DNA of 64,000 nt from an uncultured Clostridia bacterium (GCA_934457145.1 CAKSHP010000005.1:17121-81120), one strand, 5' to 3'. Shown: positions 11,347 through 27,444, counted from the first letter of the stretch. The notes: a model not told the origin generated them from the letters alone. A program made the numbers and translations.

Positions 11347-12538
11347 AATCTTTTCCTCCAGTGTCGGAATTTTGAATAAACAAATCTTCACAGCCAAGCT
11401 TTAAAAGCGCGCATGCCAGCGAAAAGAGATAACAAAAATGCATGTCGGCGTTGTCGGTTTCTATATCAAAATCGTTTTTGGCTTTTTGGATGCGGTAAAG
11501 CACGGTGTTTGAATGAGTAAACATTTTTTGCGACGTTTTTTTAAGCGAACGGCTGCATATAAAATAGTTATACAAAGTCAGGCAAAATTCGCTTTTATTT
11601 TTAAGATCGTATTTAAAAAGACTGTTTATTTTGCTGTCTATCGGGAAATCTTTTTGCTTGTAAAGCTTTGCAAGCAAAAGATAATCTCTTTCAAACGCAA
11701 CGAAGCAGTCCCTTTTTAAAAAAGAGTCTGTGTTAAAAATATCGGATATTAACTTGTAGTGAATATACATATCAAAAAGCGCGCCGAGACGTTTTGAAAC
11801 AATAATTTTTAACTTAAACTCGTTTGCAAGCAAATTAAGATTATATATGTCACTGTCCTCATGAATAAATAAAATAATTTGGTTTCTGTATAAAAACGGG
11901 TGCGCGCCGTGAAAATACAGATTTATTTTATCTTTCACAAATCCGGAGGAGCTGTCGTGCTCAATACTTTTGCAAAAGTCAATAACAGCAAAACGGCTCG
12001 GCGAAAAATGCGAAAGGTATGTTCCGCCGACCTGAATATCAAAAATATTTTTGTCGGAAAACTTGCCACCGAGTAAGTCTTCCAAAATCTCCTGGGATGT
12101 GCTGTTGGCACTGTCACAGCAGTGAAGCTCAAGATAAAGCTGTTTTGCCAAAAGCGATTCGCAAAACAAAAAATCTTCGGATTTCGGGATTGCATCTTCG
12201 GCGCTTTTAAAAATATATAATATATATCCCAAAAGAACGCCGCCGCTTGAAAGGCTTGCAACATATAAGTTGTTTTCACCCATGCAAATCCAAAAATGAT
12301 TTTTGTTTTCGTTTAATTTTTCGGCAATCTGCGTACATGCCGAAAACGAAAGCTCGCTGTGGCGCACGGCGGTTTTATAGGCAGCGTCTGCATAGTTTAA
12401 ATACGAATATGAGCAAACAATGTGAAAGGCACAGTCTGTTATAATAATCGGACACAAAAACTCCTCGCCGACGCTCTTTGCAAGCTCGTTTAGTGAGTTG
12501 TCGCAAAAAAACGACGACAGAATCTTATCTTTGTTCAT
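11339..12538 (-). CDS. PucR/CdaR-type transcriptional regulator
   Basis: The C-terminal HTH reads LKKTSQKMFTHSNTVLYRIQKAKNDF. The gene overlaps the downstream CorA-like gene, which suggests an operon. Confidence 0.6.
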   Translation of the reverse strand: MNKDKILSSFFCDNSLNELAKSVGEEFLCPIIITDCAFHIVCSYSYLNYADAAYKTAVRHSELSFSACTQIAEKLNENKNHFWICMGENNLYVASLSSGGVLLGYILYIFKSAEDAIPKSEDFLFCESLLAKQLYLELHCCDSANSTSQEILEDLLGGKFSDKNIFDIQVGGTYLSHFSPSRFAVIDFCKSIEHDSSSGFVKDKINLYFHGAHPFLYRNQIILFIHEDSDIYNLNLLANEFKLKIIVSKRLGALFDMYIHYKLISDIFNTDSFLKRDCFVAFERDYLLLAKLYKQKDFPIDSKINSLFKYDLKNKSEFCLTLYNYFICSRSLKKTSQKMFTHSNTVLYRIQKAKNDFDIETDNADMHFCYLFSLACALLKLGCEDLFIQNSDTGGKDYV

Positions 12539-16970: not shown

Positions 16971-17151
16971 GAAGATACAAAATATCAAAAGGAGGCGATT
17001 TTTGAAATAAAATAAATAAAAACAGCAAAAACTCAGTAATTTTTCCATGGCACACGATTGTAAGGTTGAGGGGGTAGAAGAAATTTGCCGCAAAAGCATT
17101 ATACCTAAAAGCGTGCAGATGCTTCTTGAAGCCGAAAGGCGAAAGGATGGT

Positions 17152-20100
17152 ATGTTTATGAAAAGGTTATTAAGTGTTTTACTAAGTATTATGTTAGTGT
17201 TTTCCGCATTTGGCGGTGCGTTTGCAAATGACGCTGCCGCTTTAGAAAGTGCGGAATTTTTTAATTTTCAAGAAGAAAATGAAAATTATGCGCCGGCAGA
17301 CGAAATTCTGCCAAATGATGATTTGGACGGCAGCAGTGAAACAGAAAGAGAGATTTTAACTTCACAAAGCGTGAAACCGGTGGCAGAAGATGATGAGGGC
17401 ATTAATCTGCCGGGAAACGAAAAAGGCTATGGTGCGTCTAATCTGCCAGAGCTGCCCAATCTGCCGACTGAGCAGGAAACAGACAGCGGCGGTTTAAACA
17501 ACGAGGGGCAAAACCGCCCGAACAGCGGCAGCTATCTTACATATGAACAAATGCTTGAAAAAGTGCGTTCAAATGCACGAAGCGAAGAGGAATACGAAAA
17601 AATTATAAATGCGCAATACATTGAGCCTGTGTATGACGATTTTGACGAAGAACAGCTTGAAAGAGCAAGAGAAAAAATTTTAAACATTAAAAACAGAGAG
17701 GTTGAAACGGAAAACGCGCTTAATTATGAAAGCGGCGCGGCTGCGATTGCAGAATTAAACGGCAGACCGGATTTGAAGATGCCGTCACTGTCGCCGAGAA
17801 AAGCGGCAAAATTTCCGAAAAGCCTTGAAGAAATTGATTTTTCACTGCCGGGCATAACTCCGGGCGCCGAAACACAGTCAAGCGGAACACAGGAGGAAAT
17901 TGACATTGCGCCCGAACAGTACGAAAGCGTATACAATGTGTTTAACAACGGCAATGAGGCTGTTGACGTACAGAGCGGAAATTTAAGCTATATTTATCCT
18001 GTTGTTTCGCTTCCGGGAAAAGACGGATTTGATTTAAATATTAATTTGGTTTATCATTCCGAAGATTCGCTGATGCGCGACTATAATGTTTCGCGAAATT
18101 GGAGTGTGGATTTGCCACAGGTGAGCTATGTTGGCAATTATCAAACAATAAGACTGCGTGACGGGAGAGTTATAAAGGAAAGTAACGGTGTTTTCTATAA
18201 TAAATACACAGATGATGTTACAATTACATGGTCAACAGGTGCTGAAAAAACTGCAACTGTTGAGTATAAAGACGGATCAAAGGACTATTTTGACAAAGAC
18301 GGAAGCATAGAACGCTCGGAAGATCCGTACGGAAATCAGATAACATATTCATATACGCGTCCAAACAGTATTGATAAATTTATTTATTCAATAACAGATA
18401 CATACGGAAGAAAAATTGAATTTAACTTTGAGACACAGAGCAAATTAAAAATTTATTGCGGCGATACGGTTTATGCTGTAGCAGATGTACATGCTGGCGG
18501 TCCTATTTCAAAAATAGGTACAAAACGAAATGCTGCGGGAGAGATAGAATGTGCAACCGAATTTACATATCAAAACGATTATCATGACATAGGTGTGGAT
18601 GGTGGCGCTCGCGAACTTTTAACAAAAATTAAATATTATACCGGCGGCGTTACAAAGTTTGAGTATGAAGCTTATAACAAAAACACATATATTGAACGTT
18701 GGTCATATGGAAGAGATTTATTTTCGGGGGAATATGGTTACACAAGCATAGGATATATGTGGGATGATGTGAACGAAAACAGAGTTATAAGCCGTGCGGA
18801 CTATCTTGAAGACAGCGAAACGGCAGAGCCGTTAAACACTGTGAATTATTACTATATCACAGATGATGATATGGAGTATGACGAAATTTCCGGCGATTAC
18901 ACAGACGCAAATTATACCTACTACACAATATGCGAAACTGCCGACAGCAGAAAAGAAGGTTCGCTTCATCAAAATATTTATGCATTTAACAACCGCCGTC
19001 AAAAAATAAAAGAAGAACTTACCGACGGTGAGTTTGGCAGATTTATATCAGCTGAAAAATTTAACAGCTTAAATGTGAATTTAAGCTATCAGGCAGATGA
19101 GTATTTTTCATGCAGTGACGTGCATTACCGTTACTATCCGCAAACTCATACATATAACGGCGAAACATACGGCAGAGGCGTTTATAATTATCAGGCTGCC
19201 GGACACATTTTAGAATATGAATCGATATATAATGAAAATGATATGCGAAGTATTGAGGCGGCAACCGCTCCGTATGATGAAGTGTATAACAGAGTGGATG
19301 AGATGCTGTATTTAAAATACACAACCAAAGCCGGCAAAGTGTTTTACGAAAAAATAAATATGCAGGAGGAACTAAAGAGGCAAAGGGAATTTACCGAATA
19401 CACATATCACCCGACCTACCGCCTCTTAACGCACACGTTGAAAAAGCATGAGCTTGACGATAATGGCGATCCCTTTGAAAGCAGCACAACATATAACTCA
19501 AAAGGCGATATACTTTCTCACACGGATTTTTATAAAAATACTGTAACATACACATATCCGGAGCAAAACAATAAAGGTATACCGCTGAGCGAAACATATT
19601 CGTATAACGGCGTTTCGGATACAACAACCGTTACAAATACCCTCTTATACACAGAGGGCGGAGCAGCATATATATCAAGTACGCAGACTGCATATAATGA
19701 CGGATATGTGAACAAACAGGATTATACATATGTTTTTAACACGCATATAGATCCGATTATACAAACTGCGTATTACGAGGGAACATCTCAGCGCTTGGGA
19801 TTTTACAAAAAAACAAGCGGATTTACCACCGTGATTGGAGACGAGCTGTGCGTAACAACGAGGGTACATTCGTATTATACCGACACAGAATATATACAAA
19901 CATCAAAAATATATGACTTAAAAACAATGCTTTTAAAAAGCGAAACAGACGGCGAAAATTTAACAACTTCATATATTTATGATGATGTTTTTTGGAATAA
20001 GGTTAAACAAATCACCGAGCCGAGCGGAAAAACAACAAAGTATTTTTATAATATCGGTGAGGAAAATTCGTTTGTGACGCTTTTGTGCGATAAATATTAC

Positions 20101-22992
20101 ACAAAAGACGTTATGGACGCATTGGGCAGAAGAACCGCCGCATATGACGGCGAGTACACCGCAGAGGAAGGCTTTAAAACTCCGCATTTAATTAATACAT
20201 ATACCTACAGCGACAATTTAAACAATATCACATGTGTTACAAATGCGCTTTCGCAAAGCACATATTATTACTATGACGATTTATATAACCGTGCAACGTC
20301 AACATTGCAGTATGACGGAAATCAAAATATTATAAACCGCATAGAATATGACGACAAAAGCCGCGAAAAAACGGTGTATGATCCCCAAAATTCAAAAATG
20401 ACATATAAATATGATTGCCGGGGAAATCTTATCAAAAAATACACAACGCTTTCAAACAATGATATTTGGCAGGAAATCAGCGCATATGACGTGTATAATA
20501 ACTTAACGTCGCAGACGGACGCTAACGGCAATACCTCAAACTACACATATAATTCAAGAAATTTGCTCATTTCCAAAACAGACGCATTAAATAACACAAC
20601 ATTGTACAGCTATACTCACGGCGACAAGCTAAGCTGCGTAAATTATCCTAACGGAGCGTATAATTTTTATCATTACGACGGTTTTGAAAACGTGAGAGAA
20701 TTGGAAAGAAGCGCAGACCGCGGAGATCTTTATACTTATGATAAAGCCGGAAATCTTAAAAGTGATGATAAATATACGTATGTGTATATGTATGAAGTTG
20801 AGGGCGAACCGGATTCGTATCTTTTAAAATATAAAATTGATTACGGATATCCGTTACATATCGGCGTGCAGTATGAGTACGACGATTTCGGAAACGTTAC
20901 AAAAGAATATTATATCCAGGCGTACACAGTAAATTATGAAATGCAAACGCCGACTGCAATCTACGGTAAAAAGCATATAGAATACACCTACACTTATAAC
21001 GGACTTTTGGCAAGCGAAACGGTTGTTCCGGACTATCCGGAGGAATTAAGAATGGAAAACGCATACACATATGATGCCGCCGGCAATGTTTTATCCGATA
21101 TAAATGGCACATATACTTATGATAATCTCGGACGTTTATCAACGCACACATATAACGGAAATACAGACAGTTATGTCTATAATAAAGATGGTACGCTTGC
21201 AATAATAATGCGTAATGGAAACAATGAATACTTTACCTATGGTGATTTAAAACGTCTTTACGCAAAAGGGTATGAAAAAGCTTCAAATGAGTATGTGTAC
21301 GAAATACTGTACTATGATAAAGTCGGTAATGTAAAAAGCCAAACAAGCGGAATTGAAATTTATAATTATGAAACATGGGTTCTGGAAGAAGCACATGATG
21401 AAACCGTGAATTATACATATGATGCGCTAAACAGGCTGACCGTGGAGGCTGCACCTTCAAAAACAACATATTACAGTTATGATAATATGGGGAATATAAC
21501 TCAGCAAGTGTATGCATACCCTGCAAACACATCTTTTGTTTCAGGACACCGTTCAAACAGTTATACCTATAATTCGAACGATATAAGCAGTCATTGCAAA
21601 ATATATACATACAACAGCTATAATGAGTTAAACTCAATAATTGAAAGTGTTTATTACTGGGCTGATGAAGAGGCGGGAACATATTACGAGGACAGATACA
21701 ATTATCTATTTGAGTATGACGTAATAGGGAGAATGACAAAAAAGATTTTGGACGGCTATGAACAGGAATTCAAATATAACACTGTCGGTCAGCTTATAGA
21801 GTATACAGATGAATCCGATAAAAAAACGTATTATTCGTATTACACAAACGGACTTCGGGAAAATAAAAATAACATGGTTTCATTTGATTACCATAACAGC
21901 GAATATACATATAAGGATTTTTACTATGATCAAAATGGCAGAATAATTTATGAATATCATCCCGAAATTTCTTCAACAAGCGACAATGTGTGGTATAGAT
22001 GGAACGCTTTTAATCCTGTGTATTCAAGCGCGGCTCCATATGATAATATTGTTTCAAATCACAGAGGCGATATTGTAAGCAATTTTGAACACTTTATCAA
22101 TGGTTACGGTGCATACGGGGTAAAAGAGCGCGAAACAAAAGAAAACAGTATGTATTTCGGGTTCTGCGGAGAATATACGGACGAGGAAAGCGGTCTTGTA
22201 TATCTCAGAAACCGATATTACGATCCCGAAATCGGCAGATTTATAACCGAAGATCCGGCAAAGGATGGCGACAATTGGTATGCATATTGTGCAGGCAACC
22301 CGGTAAGTTATATTGATCCGAGCGGGCTTGCACCGACGGTTATGGAAGCGGCGGAAATGGCGGAACATATTTATAATCATAATAAATATGACGATAAAAA
22401 TGAAAGAATAGTATCTGGTTGGAGATTGGTAGATGTATATAATGGGCGAGAAGGTATGAAGATGGGAATTTATATAAAAAACATTGACGATTGGAGAAAT
22501 CCTTCAGAATATACAATTGCATTTAAAGGAACAACATGGTATAACCTTAATGATTGGAAAAATGATGCAGAACAATTATTGTCGCCAAAATCTAAAGATA
22601 TGTGGGATGCCATAAATTACAGTAAATGCTTTGTTGCTTTTCATTCCCAAGAAATAACTTTTGTTGGTCATTCGAAAGGTGGAGCTGAAGCGGCATCGGC
22701 GGCTGTTGCAACAAATAAAAATGCTATGATATTTAATCCTGCAACATCAAATCTTAGAGATTATGGGCTTAATATATCTGGTTATACTTCAAGTATGACA
22801 GCATACATTGTTAAAGGAGAAATTGTGAATCATCTAGAGGGGTGGTTTAGTAAACCTATTGACAAAGTAGTGTATCTTCCACAACAACATGGAGGTCATT
22901 GGTATGAGTTTTGGCAGACAAATTTATATCAGAGAATACAAAATCATTCAATTAGAGCTGTTAAAGGTGCGTTAAAGGAGGCGGGTTATTGA
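17152..22992 (+). CDS. secreted Rhs/YD-repeat polymorphic toxin with a C-terminal alpha/beta-hydrolase module
   Basis: The ORF track starts at 17047. I prefer ATG 17152 or 17158 after AAAGGATGG, which gives the signal peptide MFMKRLLSVLLSIMLVFSAFGGAFA. There are many YD repeats (YTYDAAGNV, YTYDNLGRL, YTYDALNRL, YSYDNMGNI, FEYDVIGRM). The Rhs core end reads YLRNRYYDPEIGRFITEDP...GNPVSYIDPSGL. Confidence 0.9.
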   Translation: MFMKRLLSVLLSIMLVFSAFGGAFANDAAALESAEFFNFQEENENYAPADEILPNDDLDGSSETEREILTSQSVKPVAEDDEGINLPGNEKGYGASNLPELPNLPTEQETDSGGLNNEGQNRPNSGSYLTYEQMLEKVRSNARSEEEYEKIINAQYIEPVYDDFDEEQLERAREKILNIKNREVETENALNYESGAAAIAELNGRPDLKMPSLSPRKAAKFPKSLEEIDFSLPGITPGAETQSSGTQEEIDIAPEQYESVYNVFNNGNEAVDVQSGNLSYIYPVVSLPGKDGFDLNINLVYHSEDSLMRDYNVSRNWSVDLPQVSYVGNYQTIRLRDGRVIKESNGVFYNKYTDDVTITWSTGAEKTATVEYKDGSKDYFDKDGSIERSEDPYGNQITYSYTRPNSIDKFIYSITDTYGRKIEFNFETQSKLKIYCGDTVYAVADVHAGGPISKIGTKRNAAGEIECATEFTYQNDYHDIGVDGGARELLTKIKYYTGGVTKFEYEAYNKNTYIERWSYGRDLFSGEYGYTSIGYMWDDVNENRVISRADYLEDSETAEPLNTVNYYYITDDDMEYDEISGDYTDANYTYYTICETADSRKEGSLHQNIYAFNNRRQKIKEELTDGEFGRFISAEKFNSLNVNLSYQADEYFSCSDVHYRYYPQTHTYNGETYGRGVYNYQAAGHILEYESIYNENDMRSIEAATAPYDEVYNRVDEMLYLKYTTKAGKVFYEKINMQEELKRQREFTEYTYHPTYRLLTHTLKKHELDDNGDPFESSTTYNSKGDILSHTDFYKNTVTYTYPEQNNKGIPLSETYSYNGVSDTTTVTNTLLYTEGGAAYISSTQTAYNDGYVNKQDYTYVFNTHIDPIIQTAYYEGTSQRLGFYKKTSGFTTVIGDELCVTTRVHSYYTDTEYIQTSKIYDLKTMLLKSETDGENLTTSYIYDDVFWNKVKQITEPSGKTTKYFYNIGEENSFVTLLCDKYYTKDVMDALGRRTAAYDGEYTAEEGFKTPHLINTYTYSDNLNNITCVTNALSQSTYYYYDDLYNRATSTLQYDGNQNIINRIEYDDKSREKTVYDPQNSKMTYKYDCRGNLIKKYTTLSNNDIWQEISAYDVYNNLTSQTDANGNTSNYTYNSRNLLISKTDALNNTTLYSYTHGDKLSCVNYPNGAYNFYHYDGFENVRELERSADRGDLYTYDKAGNLKSDDKYTYVYMYEVEGEPDSYLLKYKIDYGYPLHIGVQYEYDDFGNVTKEYYIQAYTVNYEMQTPTAIYGKKHIEYTYTYNGLLASETVVPDYPEELRMENAYTYDAAGNVLSDINGTYTYDNLGRLSTHTYNGNTDSYVYNKDGTLAIIMRNGNNEYFTYGDLKRLYAKGYEKASNEYVYEILYYDKVGNVKSQTSGIEIYNYETWVLEEAHDETVNYTYDALNRLTVEAAPSKTTYYSYDNMGNITQQVYAYPANTSFVSGHRSNSYTYNSNDISSHCKIYTYNSYNELNSIIESVYYWADEEAGTYYEDRYNYLFEYDVIGRMTKKILDGYEQEFKYNTVGQLIEYTDESDKKTYYSYYTNGLRENKNNMVSFDYHNSEYTYKDFYYDQNGRIIYEYHPEISSTSDNVWYRWNAFNPVYSSAAPYDNIVSNHRGDIVSNFEHFINGYGAYGVKERETKENSMYFGFCGEYTDEESGLVYLRNRYYDPEIGRFITEDPAKDGDNWYAYCAGNPVSYIDPSGLAPTVMEAAEMAEHIYNHNKYDDKNERIVSGWRLVDVYNGREGMKMGIYIKNIDDWRNPSEYTIAFKGTTWYNLNDWKNDAEQLLSPKSKDMWDAINYSKCFVAFHSQEITFVGHSKGGAEAASAAVATNKNAMIFNPATSNLRDYGLNISGYTSSMTAYIVKGEIVNHLEGWFSKPIDKVVYLPQQHGGHWYEFWQTNLYQRIQNHSIRAVKGALKEAGY
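22330..22989 (+). other. C-terminal toxin module (220 aa after DPSGL): lipase-class alpha/beta-hydrolase-like
   Basis: IAFKGT..W..DW..D is followed by the nucleophile elbow FVGHSKGGAEAA (GxSxG). The segment looks visibly more AT-rich than the Rhs core just upstream; this was judged by eye, not computed. Confidence 0.65.
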
Positions 22993-23528
22993 TGAAAAGA
23001 CCAAAAATGATGATTGTAATTGCAATACTGATTGGTATTTTTATTTTAATTGGTCGTATAATTTGGATATTGTCCTTCGGATTTCTTCCAAATCCGCCGA
23101 AACCTCAAATAACGTATGGTGAATTTCCGTTTGAATTGATATATGAAATAAACGGAGAAACAAAAACAGTAAATGATGTTTTTGTGTGCGAGTATGGCGG
23201 AGTGGCTGTAGATGCAGCAAATGGGAAATTTCGCTGGTGGAAATCTTATTTGAAAAGCGGAAACACGCGCATTACATTATTAAAAAATGATGAGACGGAA
23301 ATTTTTTATACCCCCGATATAAACCAGCATGCGGCGCCGGTATATATGGGTGATACGGAAATTTACCACAGTATTAACGAAGTGTTCCCGAACGCTCTTT
23401 ATACAAGTGATTTTGAAAACAAACAGGTAAATTCGTATATTATATCAGCAGATGAAATGTGGGAGAAATATAAGCTTAAACTTATAAGCTGGAAAATTGA
23501 ACCTCCGATTAAAAACACTTTTAAATAA
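22992..23528 (+). CDS. putative cognate immunity protein (N-terminal TM, PPNPPKP/YEINGE family)
   Basis: Its ATG overlaps the rhs stop (TGATG), with AAGGAGG 11 nt upstream. It has one TM helix, then LPNPPKPQITYGEFPFELIYEINGE. A paralogue lies at 24876. Confidence 0.6.
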   Translation: MKRPKMMIVIAILIGIFILIGRIIWILSFGFLPNPPKPQITYGEFPFELIYEINGETKTVNDVFVCEYGGVAVDAANGKFRWWKSYLKSGNTRITLLKNDETEIFYTPDINQHAAPVYMGDTEIYHSINEVFPNALYTSDFENKQVNSYIISADEMWEKYKLKLISWKIEPPIKNTFK

Positions 23529-23556
23529 CCGATAGTTTGCACAAAAGGATATGCAC

Positions 23557-23589
23557 GGGGCGGCAGGCAAAAACGCCGCCCCGGCAGAG
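23557..23589 (+). repeat. GC-rich hairpin element, copy a (GGGGCGGC-loop-GCCGCCCC-GGCAGAG)
   Basis: Perfect 8-bp GC stem. The element recurs at 24755, 26761 and 27411. Confidence 0.7.
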
Positions 23590-23604
23590 CAAGGGGAGAA
23601 AAAG

Positions 23605-24072
23605 ATGAAAAAAATTATATTAATGACACTTGCAGTAATTTTGCTTGCTGCGGCTGCCGGCGGATATTATATTTACAGAATAACTATTGATACAGAATAT
23701 GCGGTTAAATTTTCAGAAGTTTTTGACACTTATGATATAAATGAGATTGACAAATATTTTGATGAAGACACTTTGTTTATATATGGGCAGAGGCAAAAAA
23801 CATATAAAGAATTAAGAGACAATATCAAAACTGCCTGTGATAAAAAATGTTATAAATTCGGTTCGTACGGACACGGCAATGACAGATTTGAAAACAATCG
23901 TCAAACTGTCACACTTATGTTGCATGCCACAATTTATAATGAGGATATTACAATGGAAACCCATATGGTATTAAAACGAACGGGGCCGTTTTCATTTAAA
24001 ATAGAGTCGGTTGATTGCAGCGAAAAGCTGTTGGGAGATTTGTTTTTCGGTGAAGAGGGAGGAAGATTGTGA
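23605..24072 (+). CDS. membrane-anchored hypothetical protein (cassette 1, gene 2)
   Basis: The inner ATG after GGGGAG gives MKKIILMTLAVILLAAAAGGYYIY. Its stop overlaps the next gene's start (GTGA). Confidence 0.6.
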   Translation: MKKIILMTLAVILLAAAAGGYYIYRITIDTEYAVKFSEVFDTYDINEIDKYFDEDTLFIYGQRQKTYKELRDNIKTACDKKCYKFGSYGHGNDRFENNRQTVTLMLHATIYNEDITMETHMVLKRTGPFSFKIESVDCSEKLLGDLFFGEEGGRL

Positions 24073-24518
24073 AAAAAATAATTACATTTATAATTTTTAT
24101 ATCAGTAATATTGAACACACAGGTGTTTGCAAGCGATAATGTTTTAAAAAATCAGGTGGTAGACAAAATTGCCCCGTATGCGCAAAAGGATTCGGAAGAA
24201 AAAATACCGAGAAAGGATTGCGTTATTTCAATTGTAAAAGCTATCGGCGCGAATGAAGATTTAAATGAACAACGAAGACGGGTGGCTTACGAGTCTCCGC
24301 CTTTCGGTAGCGAGTATACAATATTTCAAGAGGATTTTGGATATTTGATAGCGGCTTATTATGATGATATATTGTGCGGAGAGCCGTATTATTACAATTC
24401 TGAGCAAATGGGAGTTTTGGTTACGCCGTTTCGCGCAGTGAAAGCAAAGGAATGTCTGGCGTTTATGCTAAGATGTTTAAAACCTATGGAAAGTATAGAA
24501 TGGAATAACACTTTTTAA
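24069..24518 (+). CDS. secreted hypothetical protein, copy 1 (cassette 1, gene 3), ends at an in-frame TAA
   Basis: Signal peptide MKKIITFIIFISVILNTQVFA. Nearly identical to 26077..26526. Confidence 0.65.
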   Translation: MKKIITFIIFISVILNTQVFASDNVLKNQVVDKIAPYAQKDSEEKIPRKDCVISIVKAIGANEDLNEQRRRVAYESPPFGSEYTIFQEDFGYLIAAYYDDILCGEPYYYNSEQMGVLVTPFRAVKAKECLAFMLRCLKPMESIEWNNTF

Positions 24519-24743
24519 GACAGCATAGATATCGGACTGATAAATGCAGAAGAAGCAAAAGCATTCGAAAATCAGAAATATTTAATGGCAAAGGATTTTA
24601 GAGTATTGCTTAGCCGTATGCTTGATATGAAACGGTATTTGTATTATACGGATGAAGCAAAAAAATCTGTTTGGAGAAATTATATTGAAACAGATGCAGC
24701 GGGCAGCATGACATATTTGGAACAGTATCTGAAAAATAATTAA
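24519..24743 (+). other. in-frame, coding-like extension of 74 codons after the TAA of the preceding ORF
   Basis: The same frame continues as DSIDIGLINAEEAKAFENQKYLMAKDFRVLLSRMLDMKRYLYYTDEAKK...YLEQYLKNN, stop TAA at 24741. Confidence 0.5.
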
Positions 24744-24754
24744 AATATGCCTGC

Positions 24755-24790
24755 GGGGCGGCGGTTTCGCTTACCGCCGTCCAGGCAGAG
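24755..24790 (+). repeat. GC-rich hairpin element, copy b (degenerate)
   Basis: GGGGCGGCGG-tttcgctta-CCGCCGTCC-aGGCAGAG. Confidence 0.6.
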
Positions 24791-26076: not shown

Positions 26077-26526
26077 ATGAAAAAAATAATTACATTTATA
26101 ATTTTTATATCAGTAATATTAAACACACAGGTGTTTGCAAGCGATAATGTTTTAAAAAGTCAGGTGATAGACGAAATTGCCCCGTATACTCAAAAGGATT
26201 CGGAAGAAAAAATACCGAGAAAGGATTGCGTTATTTCAATTGTAAAAGCTATCGGCGCGAATGAAGATTTAAATGAACAACGAAGACGGGTGGCTTACGA
26301 GTCTCCGCCTTTCGGTAGCGAGTATACAATATTTCAAGAGGATTTTGGATATTTGATAGCGGCTTATTATGATGATATATTGTGCGGAGAGCCGTATTAT
26401 TACAATTCTGAGCAAATGGGAGTTTTGGTTACGCCGTTTCGCGCAGTGAAAGCAAAGGAATGTCTGGCGTTTATGCTAAGATGTTTAAAACCTATGGAAA
26501 GTATAGAATGGAATAACACTTTTTAA
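26077..26526 (+). CDS. secreted hypothetical protein, copy 2 (cassette 2, gene 3), same in-frame TAA
   Basis: Differs from copy 1 by four amino acids, all near the N-terminus. GGGAGG lies upstream. Confidence 0.65.
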   Translation: MKKIITFIIFISVILNTQVFASDNVLKSQVIDEIAPYTQKDSEEKIPRKDCVISIVKAIGANEDLNEQRRRVAYESPPFGSEYTIFQEDFGYLIAAYYDDILCGEPYYYNSEQMGVLVTPFRAVKAKECLAFMLRCLKPMESIEWNNTF

Positions 26527-26751
26527 GACAGCATAGATATCGGACTGATAAATGCAGAAGAAGCAAAAGCATTCGAAAATCAGAAATATTTAATGGCAAA
26601 GGATTTTAGAGTATTGCTTAGCCGTATGCTTGATATGAAACGGTATTTGTATTATACGGATGAAACAGAAAGTTCGGGGTGGAGAACTCATATTGAAACA
26701 GATGTATCGGGCAGCATGACATATTTGGAACAGTATCTGAAAAATAATTAA
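26527..26751 (+). other. in-frame coding-like extension, copy 2
   Basis: Same continuation as copy 1, with a diverged patch (TESSGWRTH vs AKKSVWRNY). Stop TAA at 26749. Confidence 0.5.
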
Positions 26752-26760
26752 AATATGCTG

Positions 26761-26795
26761 CCGGGGCGACAGGCAAAACCGCCGCCCCGGCAGAG
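26761..26795 (+). repeat. GC-rich hairpin element, copy c
   Basis: CCGGGGCG pairs with CGCCCCGG across a 14-nt loop, followed by CAGAG. Confidence 0.7.
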
Positions 26796-27410: not shown

Positions 27411-27444
27411 CGGGGCGACAGGCAAAACCGCCGCCCCGGCAGAG
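27411..27444 (+). repeat. GC-rich hairpin element, copy d
   Basis: Almost identical to copy c. Confidence 0.7.

Follow-up and report, generated by a model that had tools for sequence, protein, structure and literature searches.

The Rhs gene and its C-terminal tip

The stretch of DNA analysed here (the window; 64,000 nucleotides [nt], GCA_934457145.1 CAKSHP010000005.1:17121-81120) comes from an uncultured Clostridia bacterium and carries, on the strand shown, a gene for an Rhs/YD-repeat polymorphic toxin of 1981 amino acids (aa), a gene for a 178-aa protein directly behind it, and an island of small genes further downstream (Table 1). This report concerns the last 220 residues of the Rhs protein (the tip), which follow the conserved core, and the 178-aa protein, which is the candidate for its immunity protein. 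The open reading frame (ORF) showed three stretches of PF05593 RHS_repeat (E 2.7e-10) and matched TIGR01643 YD_repeat_2x (31.8 bits; cut-off 15.8), and its core end matched TIGR03696 Rhs_assc_core (80.3 bits; cut-off 32.5). The true start is probably the ATG at 17152 or 17158. The original prediction, made by reading the sequence alone, had placed the canonical junction motif at the end of the core, and it is indeed found there: YDPEIGRF lies at 22219-22242, and PVSYIDPSGL lies at 22300-22329, directly before the tip. Autoproteolysis is predicted to occur after Leu1761, given what is known of the family and the presence of the motif. The core end shows 55-79% identity with that of many Clostridia Rhs proteins bearing other tips and is a conserved recombination handle.

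Table 1 Features of the Rhs locus in the window.
Feature	Position (nt)	Strand	Basis
Rhs/YD-repeat polymorphic toxin gene	17047..22992	+	ORF call; RHS_repeat, TIGR01643, and TIGR03696 matches
Putative Sec-type signal peptide, MKRLLSVLLSIMLVFSAFGGAFA followed by ND	~17158-17226	+	Predicted by reading the sequence
Rhs-associated core end, aa 1687-1761, with RYYDPEIGRF and PVSYIDPSGL	22105..22329	+	TIGR03696; motif coordinates
C-terminal toxin tip, 220 aa, predicted lipase-class alpha/beta-hydrolase (PF26363 Phospholipase-like, Tle6-related)	22330..22989	+	Stop codon 22990-22992
Predicted nucleophile Ser1876 (tip Ser115) codon, in GHSKGG	22672..22674	+	Invariant in 69/69; Tle Ser341; elbow in model
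Predicted catalytic acid Glu1925 (tip Glu164) codon	22819..22821	+	Always acidic; Tle Glu393
Predicted catalytic His1967 (tip His206) codon	22945..22947	+	His in 68/69
Cognate immunity candidate, 178 aa	22992..23528	+	Follows tip; family linkage; AF2 model
GC-rich hairpin GGGGCGGC-N10-GCCGCCCC, right end of module	23556..23589 (repeat unit to 23598)	+	Sequence; blastn-short
Strain-specific segment: tip, immunity gene, and GC-rich hairpin	22330..23604	+	Absent from L086; blastn
Membrane-anchored protein, 155 aa	23605..24072	+	95% identical to L086 11235-11702
Orphan paralogue of the 178-aa immunity candidate, 29-31% identity	24861..25487	+	Also in L086

The tip had been described as carrying the motifs IAFKGT and GHSKGG and as belonging to class-3 lipases and the Mbeg1-like/DUF2974 family. 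Both motifs are present within its 220 residues (22516-22533 and 22666-22683, respectively). The family assignment held in part. Pfam Mbeg1-like/DUF2974 (PF11187) matched the tip with 29.8 bits (gathering score 21.1), whereas membership in Pfam Lipase_3 (PF01764) was ruled out on score (19.0 bits; gathering score 22), although the tip is lipase-like all the same. A newer family, PF26363 "Phospholipase-like", for which no publication turned up in our literature search, is given in the precomputed annotation of 117 of the 120 listed tip relatives (33-82% identical). Assigned through these annotated relatives, PF26363 appears to be the family that fits the tip.

When the tip was compared with PDB sequences using phmmer, the sole significant match was the "T6SS lipase effector" 7UBZ/9CYS (E 3.5e-5 to 7ubz_B), which is the Tle of E. 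cloacae; a family profile of 69 sequences matched it with E 7.2e-15. Tle is a phospholipase A1/A2 with the triad Ser341-Glu393-His448 and the ankyrin immunity protein Tli, and it has been put forward as the founding member of a "Tle6" group related to Serratia Slp (PMC11470151). The earlier remark that the tip recalls Tle-like phospholipase effectors agrees with this result, the nearest solved relative being the founder of the proposed group. The AF2 (AlphaFold2) model of the tip, computed on the family alignment, had a mean pLDDT (predicted local distance difference test) of 90.7 and a pTM (predicted template modelling score) of 0.90. In the model, Ser115 is placed where strand 108-114 turns into helix 116-128, which is the canonical nucleophile elbow, and a less confident helix (74-84) is located where lipase lids are found. 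The top match of the model in a Foldseek search of PDB was 9cys_A (E 2.7e-9, TMq 0.67). Ranks 2-6 were occupied by Aspergillus feruloyl esterase A, and fungal class-3 lipases and plant phospholipase A1 were also matched; the matches to the solved class-3 lipases 3ngm, 6qpp, 1tic, 3g7n, and 5ch8 had a probability of 1.00, E 7e-6 to 2e-4, and TMq 0.48-0.58. The alpha/beta-hydrolase fold that had been expected was thus recovered by structure prediction and fold search.

Residue conservation was counted over the 69 sequences of the relatives alignment. GHSKGG was invariant, with Ser115 in 69/69; position 164 was acidic in every sequence (47 Glu and 22 Asp); and His206 was found in 68. In HMMER alignments, Ser115 pairs with Tle Ser341 and Glu164 with Tle Glu393. 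The acid and His are 42 residues apart in the tip, comparable with 55 in Tle (Glu393-His448). We therefore predict a triad of Ser1876-Glu1925-His1967 in the order Ser-acid-His. Catalytic Asp and His partners had been anticipated; an acid and His are conserved, but the acid is Glu here, not Asp. Together, the sequence and the model assign the tip to the lipase class, as a class-3-lipase-like alpha/beta-hydrolase.

In the surroundings of the Rhs gene, MutS2 is encoded upstream, and MazG, YabP, YabQ, DivIC, and S1 are encoded downstream, the latter being placed through 98%-identical synteny with L086, a contig of a sister strain. The presence of YabP, YabQ, and DivIC in the syntenic L086 indicates a spore-forming Clostridia context. 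No genes for a type VI secretion system (T6SS) were found among the window ORFs, the Pfam scan being confined to those close to the Rhs gene. Since the host is a monoderm member of the Clostridia and a Sec signal peptide is predicted, the Rhs protein of this spore-forming gut bacterium appears to be a WapA-like, Sec-exported protein, not a T6SS effector.

Recombination at the conserved core end exchanges the tip

A search with the core end yielded P0150, which is identical to residues 1563-1761 of the Rhs protein (199/199) and unrelated right after DPSGL. The 364-kb contig of the sister strain carrying P0150 (L086) was compared with the window by blastn and on the printed sequence. L086 9926-10597 corresponds to window 21658-22329 at 99.7% identity (2 mismatches), and the match ends with the final base of the Leu codon, at 22329. 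Past this point, the window reads GCACCG and L086 reads TATTAT. The two sequences are homologous again from the ATG that starts the following gene (window 23605 = L086 11235), with 95-98% identity onward through MazG to TspO. The counterpart of 22330-23604 in L086 is a 637-nt stretch with only an unrelated tip of 208 aa, which had no significant Pfam match (DUF4347 E 0.044, under the cut-off). Moreover, the nearest lipase tips (70-82% identical) are carried on cores that are just 25-36% identical outside the last ~100 residues. These results show that the tip is diversified by recombination at the conserved core end, with a boundary exact to the codon. A horizontally swapped module of tip and immunity gene had been proposed from the composition of the DNA, and the homology with L086, which breaks off precisely where the DPSGL codons end, bears this out. 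We consider it likely that a toxin tip of the lipase family and its cognate immunity gene are exchanged as a module. No close relatives of the core end were found in GTDB genomes; the sister strain came from the protein database.

The 155-aa gene of the window probably encodes the immunity protein of the alternative tip, kept here as an orphan, because it directly follows the alternative tip in L086. The L086 Rhs gene itself is cut at the equivalent of window 21658, so that only the last 224 core codons and the 208-aa tip remain. Upstream of this remnant, L086 1-9925 holds an element with four serine recombinase genes as well as helix-turn-helix and sigma-like genes.

A marked turn to AT-rich DNA and a change in third-position usage had been reported right after the junction, continuing through the next gene. 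The compositional break stood for codon usage and not for overall GC. Total GC changed little between core (0.384) and tip (0.351), and much of the visible AT-rich turn arises because a local GC peak over the conserved core end (0.44-0.46 at 22100-22300) declines again to the values seen in the core body (0.32-0.36 at 21200-22000). In contrast, the G+C content at third codon positions (GC3) fell from 0.365 in the core to 0.232 in the tip. Across the whole ORF, maximum likelihood put the changepoint at codon 1772 (nt 22363), 11 codons past the junction, and it was reached in 0/1000 permutations. No 220-codon window of the core was as low in GC3 as the tip, which was the lowest of the 41 ORFs in the window. 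Given its amino acids and the codon usage of the core, 86.6 ± 6.5 G/C-ending codons were expected in the tip and 51 were seen (z = -5.5), and C-ending codons decreased from 20% in the core to 4.5%. The claim that the shift continues through the next gene was not supported: the immunity gene (22992-23525) had a GC3 of 0.320 without a significant shift (z = -1.4), and the small genes downstream (0.32-0.40) were near the Rhs core.

The immunity gene and the partners of the tip family

The tip and the 178-aa gene overlap by one base (TGATG), the ATG at 22992 lying in the TGA of the tip. A strong Shine-Dalgarno sequence, AAGGAGG (22966-22994 region), sits in the conserved C-terminal codons of the tip (...ALKEAGY), and the immunity gene is predicted to be translationally coupled to the tip. 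The codons for the conserved C-terminus of the tip double as the ribosome binding site of the immunity gene, and the protein sequence of the tip and the translation signal would therefore be constrained together.

The 178-aa protein consists of a positively charged N-terminus, a transmembrane (TM) helix, a PNPPKP linker, and a beta-rich domain; its AF2 model had a pLDDT of 83.7 with a helix at 4-30. According to the positive-inside rule, the N-terminus would be inside and the folded domain outward (extracytoplasmic). An immunity protein attached to the membrane and facing outward is what one would expect against a toxin acting on the membrane from outside, and the S. aureus pairs TslA/TilA and TslM/TilM share this arrangement (PMC13560087). 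The protein matched no Pfam or NCBIfam family, including Ank, and a Foldseek search against PDB gave no significant fold (best E 0.058, TM-score 0.13). As there was no family or fold match, the labels Imm66, Imm69, DUF1433, and ankyrin were dropped; a LolA/LolB-like fold was likewise rejected, the Foldseek matches being not significant.

To define the partners of the tip family, 80 relatives were scored (79 fetched loci and the window). The gene directly after the tip encoded a member of the TM-anchored PNPPKP family (~180 aa) in 41/80 and a ~310-aa ankyrin-repeat protein, confirmed by Pfam, in 31/80; in the remaining eight, the gene was cut by a contig end or fitted neither family. Partner type follows the branching of the tip tree, in which a clade of 32 was only ankyrin-linked or unassigned, and several clades, including that of the window, were only TM-linked. 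No single tip column separated ankyrin-linked from TM-linked tips at 80%/80%. The tip family thus has two mutually exclusive immunity partners, an ankyrin protein and an unannotated TM-anchored protein. The Tle6 group has been described as "invariably" encoded with an ankyrin-repeat immunity protein (PMC11470151); the ankyrin-linked relatives agree with this, and the clade of the window does not. Tentatively, and with somewhat more doubt than confidence, we suggest that the tips with a TM-anchored PNPPKP partner form a distinct Tle6-related lineage found almost only in Bacillota, in which the ankyrin Tli is replaced by a fold new to PDB and which works without the Tli-dependent glycation crosslink. 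If this were true, comparison of the lineages would show the purpose of the Tle6 activation step, and monoderm gut bacteria would gain their first Rhs/WapA toxin-immunity pair of the lipase type.

In an exhaustive phmmer search, the tip matched 1009 cluster representatives at E <= 1e-3, of which 78 reached E <= 1e-30. The lipase domain was always C-terminal, in proteins of 109-3646 aa, and across the 80 genome loci it was preceded by DPxG-type Rhs junctions or, in Pelosinus, by a DUF4280/PAAR-like domain. Its hosts were mostly Bacillota, together with Bacteroidota, Treponema, a cyanobacterium, and a metagenome-assembled genome of Dehalococcoidia, and the nearest relatives of the tip were in gut metagenome-assembled "Clostridia bacterium" genomes. 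In Pelosinus fermentans (L003 8001-11156), the lipase domain is fused to DUF4280 (PAAR-like) and adjoins a DUF2345/VgrG-like gene; two 90%-identical ankyrin lipoproteins are encoded after it, and a VgrG-Rhs-DNase gene is nearby. The setting is of the T6SS type, in a diderm of the Bacillota. In L001, L002, L007, and L014, the lipase tips are often short "orphan" Rhs C-terminal fragments arrayed with other tip/immunity pairs, for example, an Ntox35 pair in Brevibacillus laterosporus. L007 has three core-end fragments within 4 kb, and L014 has a second copy of the lipase tip.

The orphan paralogue of the lipase immunity protein (Table 1) is 97% conserved in L086, a strain without the lipase tip, which is consistent with stockpiled protection against the lipase tips of other strains. 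Further copies of the GC-rich hairpin were found at 26762-26795 and 27411-27444, a diverged copy at ~24750-24787, and one in L086 at 12384-12426; they lie between cassettes in the island of small genes downstream of Rhs. The repeat has the form GGGGCG(G/A)C-N10-GCCGCCCC, after which come GGCAGAG and, in some of the copies, a Shine-Dalgarno sequence (CAAGGGGAG). By blastn-short, the copies were restricted to the window and L086, none being found in the other fetched loci. No T-run follows the hairpin on either strand, and the label of intrinsic terminator was therefore dropped; the hairpin could be a recombination or RNA-processing site. In the same island, 24069-24743 and 26077-26751 are two 97%-identical copies of a secreted-protein gene, both split into ORFs of 149 aa and 52 aa by the same CAA to TAA nonsense change, and L086 11699-12373 has a single intact 224-aa ORF of this gene. 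The explanation is either duplication of a pseudogene or spread of the stop through gene conversion.

Proposed action, alternative explanations, and known systems

On the basis of the predicted signal peptide and of family knowledge, the Rhs protein would be exported by Sec, its YD-repeat shell would enclose the 220-residue tip, and the tip would be freed by the conserved aspartyl autoproteolysis after ...DPSGL (Leu1761). After contact with a neighbour cell, or release near one, the Ser-Glu-His triad, with a flexible lid helix ahead of the nucleophile, may hydrolyse the acyl esters of membrane phospholipids at the outer face of the cytoplasmic membrane, as homology to Tle suggests, and neighbouring bacteria would be killed through this hydrolysis. 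The producer may be shielded by the 22992-23528 protein, whose outward domain, judging from linkage and topology, would bind toxin on its way in or out and block it. Tip, immunity gene, and terminal hairpin (22330-23604) make up a single exchangeable cassette.

Phospholipid as the specific substrate is predicted from homology to a demonstrated phospholipase A1/A2, and we hold it to be probable, if by a moderate measure. Several observations weigh against the assignment to Tle-like phospholipases. The Mbeg1-like match spans only profile positions 38-108 of 224, about a third; the Lipase_3 match, under its gathering score, covers residues 105-131 only; the sequence alignment with Tle ends short of the His; and the tip is only ~19% identical to Tle over the fold. 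Feruloyl esterases are among the class-3-lipase-like folds, so the substrate need not be phospholipid, and a tip from a Sec-secreted Rhs cage would have to pass the peptidoglycan of the target. Activation of Tle needs the ankyrin immunity protein and an Arg-Lys glycation (MODIC) crosslink of the N- and C-terminal helices (PMC11470151). In tip residues 1-30 and 208-220, whose positions are not alignable to Tle, no Arg or Lys was conserved at 80% or more. Since the tip lacks both an ankyrin partner and conserved Arg/Lys in the terminal helices, its activation may differ from that of Tle, the one relative that has been studied.

The tip might instead be an esterase acting on another substrate of the envelope, such as lipoteichoic acid or lipoprotein acyl chains, peptidoglycan O-acetyl groups, or feruloyl-type esters. 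The presence of feruloyl esterase A at Foldseek ranks 2-6 fits this, conservation is limited to the Ser-acid-His core, with nothing to mark the acyl-binding pocket, and the Mbeg1-like/DUF2974 family has no defined substrate. We nevertheless regard it as unlikely: the closest relative by sequence and fold is a demonstrated phospholipase A1/A2 (PMC11470151), the GHSxG toxin family is best matched by lipase profiles (PMC3482391), and a membrane-anchored immunity protein would put neutralisation at the membrane surface. A target outside the bacteria has much less to commend it. Rhs/YD cages do carry anti-eukaryotic toxins, including the TccC cages of Tc toxins, lipases occur as virulence factors, TcdB2-TccC3 and YenC2 match the core end, and the organism lives in an animal gut; the Rhs protein could thus be aimed at a eukaryotic host or protist, the downstream gene then not being an immunity gene. 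However, the tip and the downstream gene are tightly coupled and vary together in 72/80 relatives, orphan immunity paralogues are retained in a strain without the toxin, orphan tip/immunity arrays occur in L001, L002, and L007, and no TcA/TcB-like partners were found in the window. Coupled partner genes, orphan immunity paralogues, and orphan arrays are hallmarks of interbacterial polymorphic toxin systems (PMC3482391). A eukaryotic target therefore seems very improbable to us, and we retain the reading of an interbacterial toxin with its immunity gene.

Another explanation concerns the low GC3, which may reflect relaxed or different codon selection on tips in general and not a recent import. 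The unrelated alternative tip of L086 has a GC3 of 0.231, the same as the 0.232 of the lipase tip; therefore, low GC3 may be a property of the tip pool and is not proof of recent arrival. The immunity gene of the same segment, without a significant shift, points in the same direction. On the other hand, both tips may stem from one AT3-rich cassette pool. We give codon selection a real, if minor, share of the probability; it touches only the reading of the composition, whereas the exchange of the module is shown by the sequence comparison.

An Rhs-borne polymorphic toxin of the lipase type with an immunity gene is an already known kind of bacterial weapon, and current concepts are unchanged. 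The codon-exact boundary of the swap, the two exclusive immunity partners, and the unannotated TM partner without a fold match go modestly beyond expectation. The locus provides a well-delimited natural example of Rhs toxin diversification in which the immunity gene of the prior tip was apparently left as an orphan, and it would bring Sec-exported Rhs proteins of gut Clostridia into the recently defined phospholipase family of the Tle6 type. The split into two partners helps annotate loci of antagonism in the gut microbiome, and a 220-aa lipase toxin with a 178-aa immunity protein is a compact pair for experiments.

Among known systems, Tle is the closest solved relative of the tip by sequence and fold; both have a class-3-lipase-like core and a Ser-Glu-His triad, the latter predicted in the tip, and in both systems the immunity protein is, or is predicted to be, extracytoplasmic. 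The ankyrin-linked clade of the tip family (31/80, including the DUF4280/PAAR-like fusions of Pelosinus) resembles Tle/Tli. In contrast to Tle, a T6SS effector with a lipase domain of ~300 aa, the tip is shorter, at 220 aa, and is carried on a predicted Sec-exported Rhs protein of a monoderm; unlike the ankyrin lipoprotein Tli, its partner is a TM-anchored, beta-rich protein with no Ank match.

The tip probably corresponds to Tox-ABhydrolase-3, judged by description. This lipase-like alpha/beta-hydrolase toxin domain, with the motifs "G[ST], GHSxG" and a predicted role in membrane disruption, was described on RHS-repeat polymorphic toxins of Firmicutes and Bacteroidetes, among others, and in profile comparisons the GHSxG toxin family was matched best by lipases (Zhang, de Souza, Anantharaman, Iyer, and Aravind 2012; PMC3482391). 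The tip shares KGT and GHSKGG with it, the comparison being by description only; the Tox-ABhydrolase-3 immunity families Imm66 and Imm69 gave no Pfam match on the 178-aa protein.

TslA/TilA and TslM/TilM of S. aureus are type VII secretion system (T7SS) antibacterial phospholipase toxins acting outside the membrane, with membrane-attached immunity proteins (PMC13560087). TilM resembles the 178-aa protein in having an uncleaved N-terminal TM helix and one small folded domain, and rafts of orphan immunity paralogues adjoin the toxin gene at the Tsl loci, as in the window (PMC13560087). The systems differ in delivery, since Tsl toxins have LXG-like domains and depend on T7SSb, whereas the tip would leave the cell in a Sec-exported Rhs cage, and in immunity, DUF1433 or lipoproteins standing against an unannotated family. 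At the sequence level, the link covered is a weak match to the NCBIfam "SA1320 family" (38.6 bits; cut-off 230).

The layout of an Rhs core with a DUF2974 hydrolase is also seen in AKA51715.1 from the T6SS V2 region of Bacteroides fragilis, annotated as an interbacterial effector (PMC11854122). That protein is T6SS-borne in a diderm, and the annotation is bioinformatic only. The WapA tips characterised so far are, to our knowledge, nucleases, which have to reach the cytoplasm; the system in the window differs from them in its lipase-type tip and its putatively extracytoplasmic immunity protein. In its architecture, the Rhs protein otherwise agrees with WapA of B. subtilis and with other Sec-dependent Rhs toxins of Gram-positive bacteria, for example, WapA of Streptococcus suis (PMC12704120), sharing the signal peptide (predicted here), the YD-repeat shell, the DPxGL core end, the polymorphic C-terminal toxin, the adjacent immunity gene, and the orphan modules.

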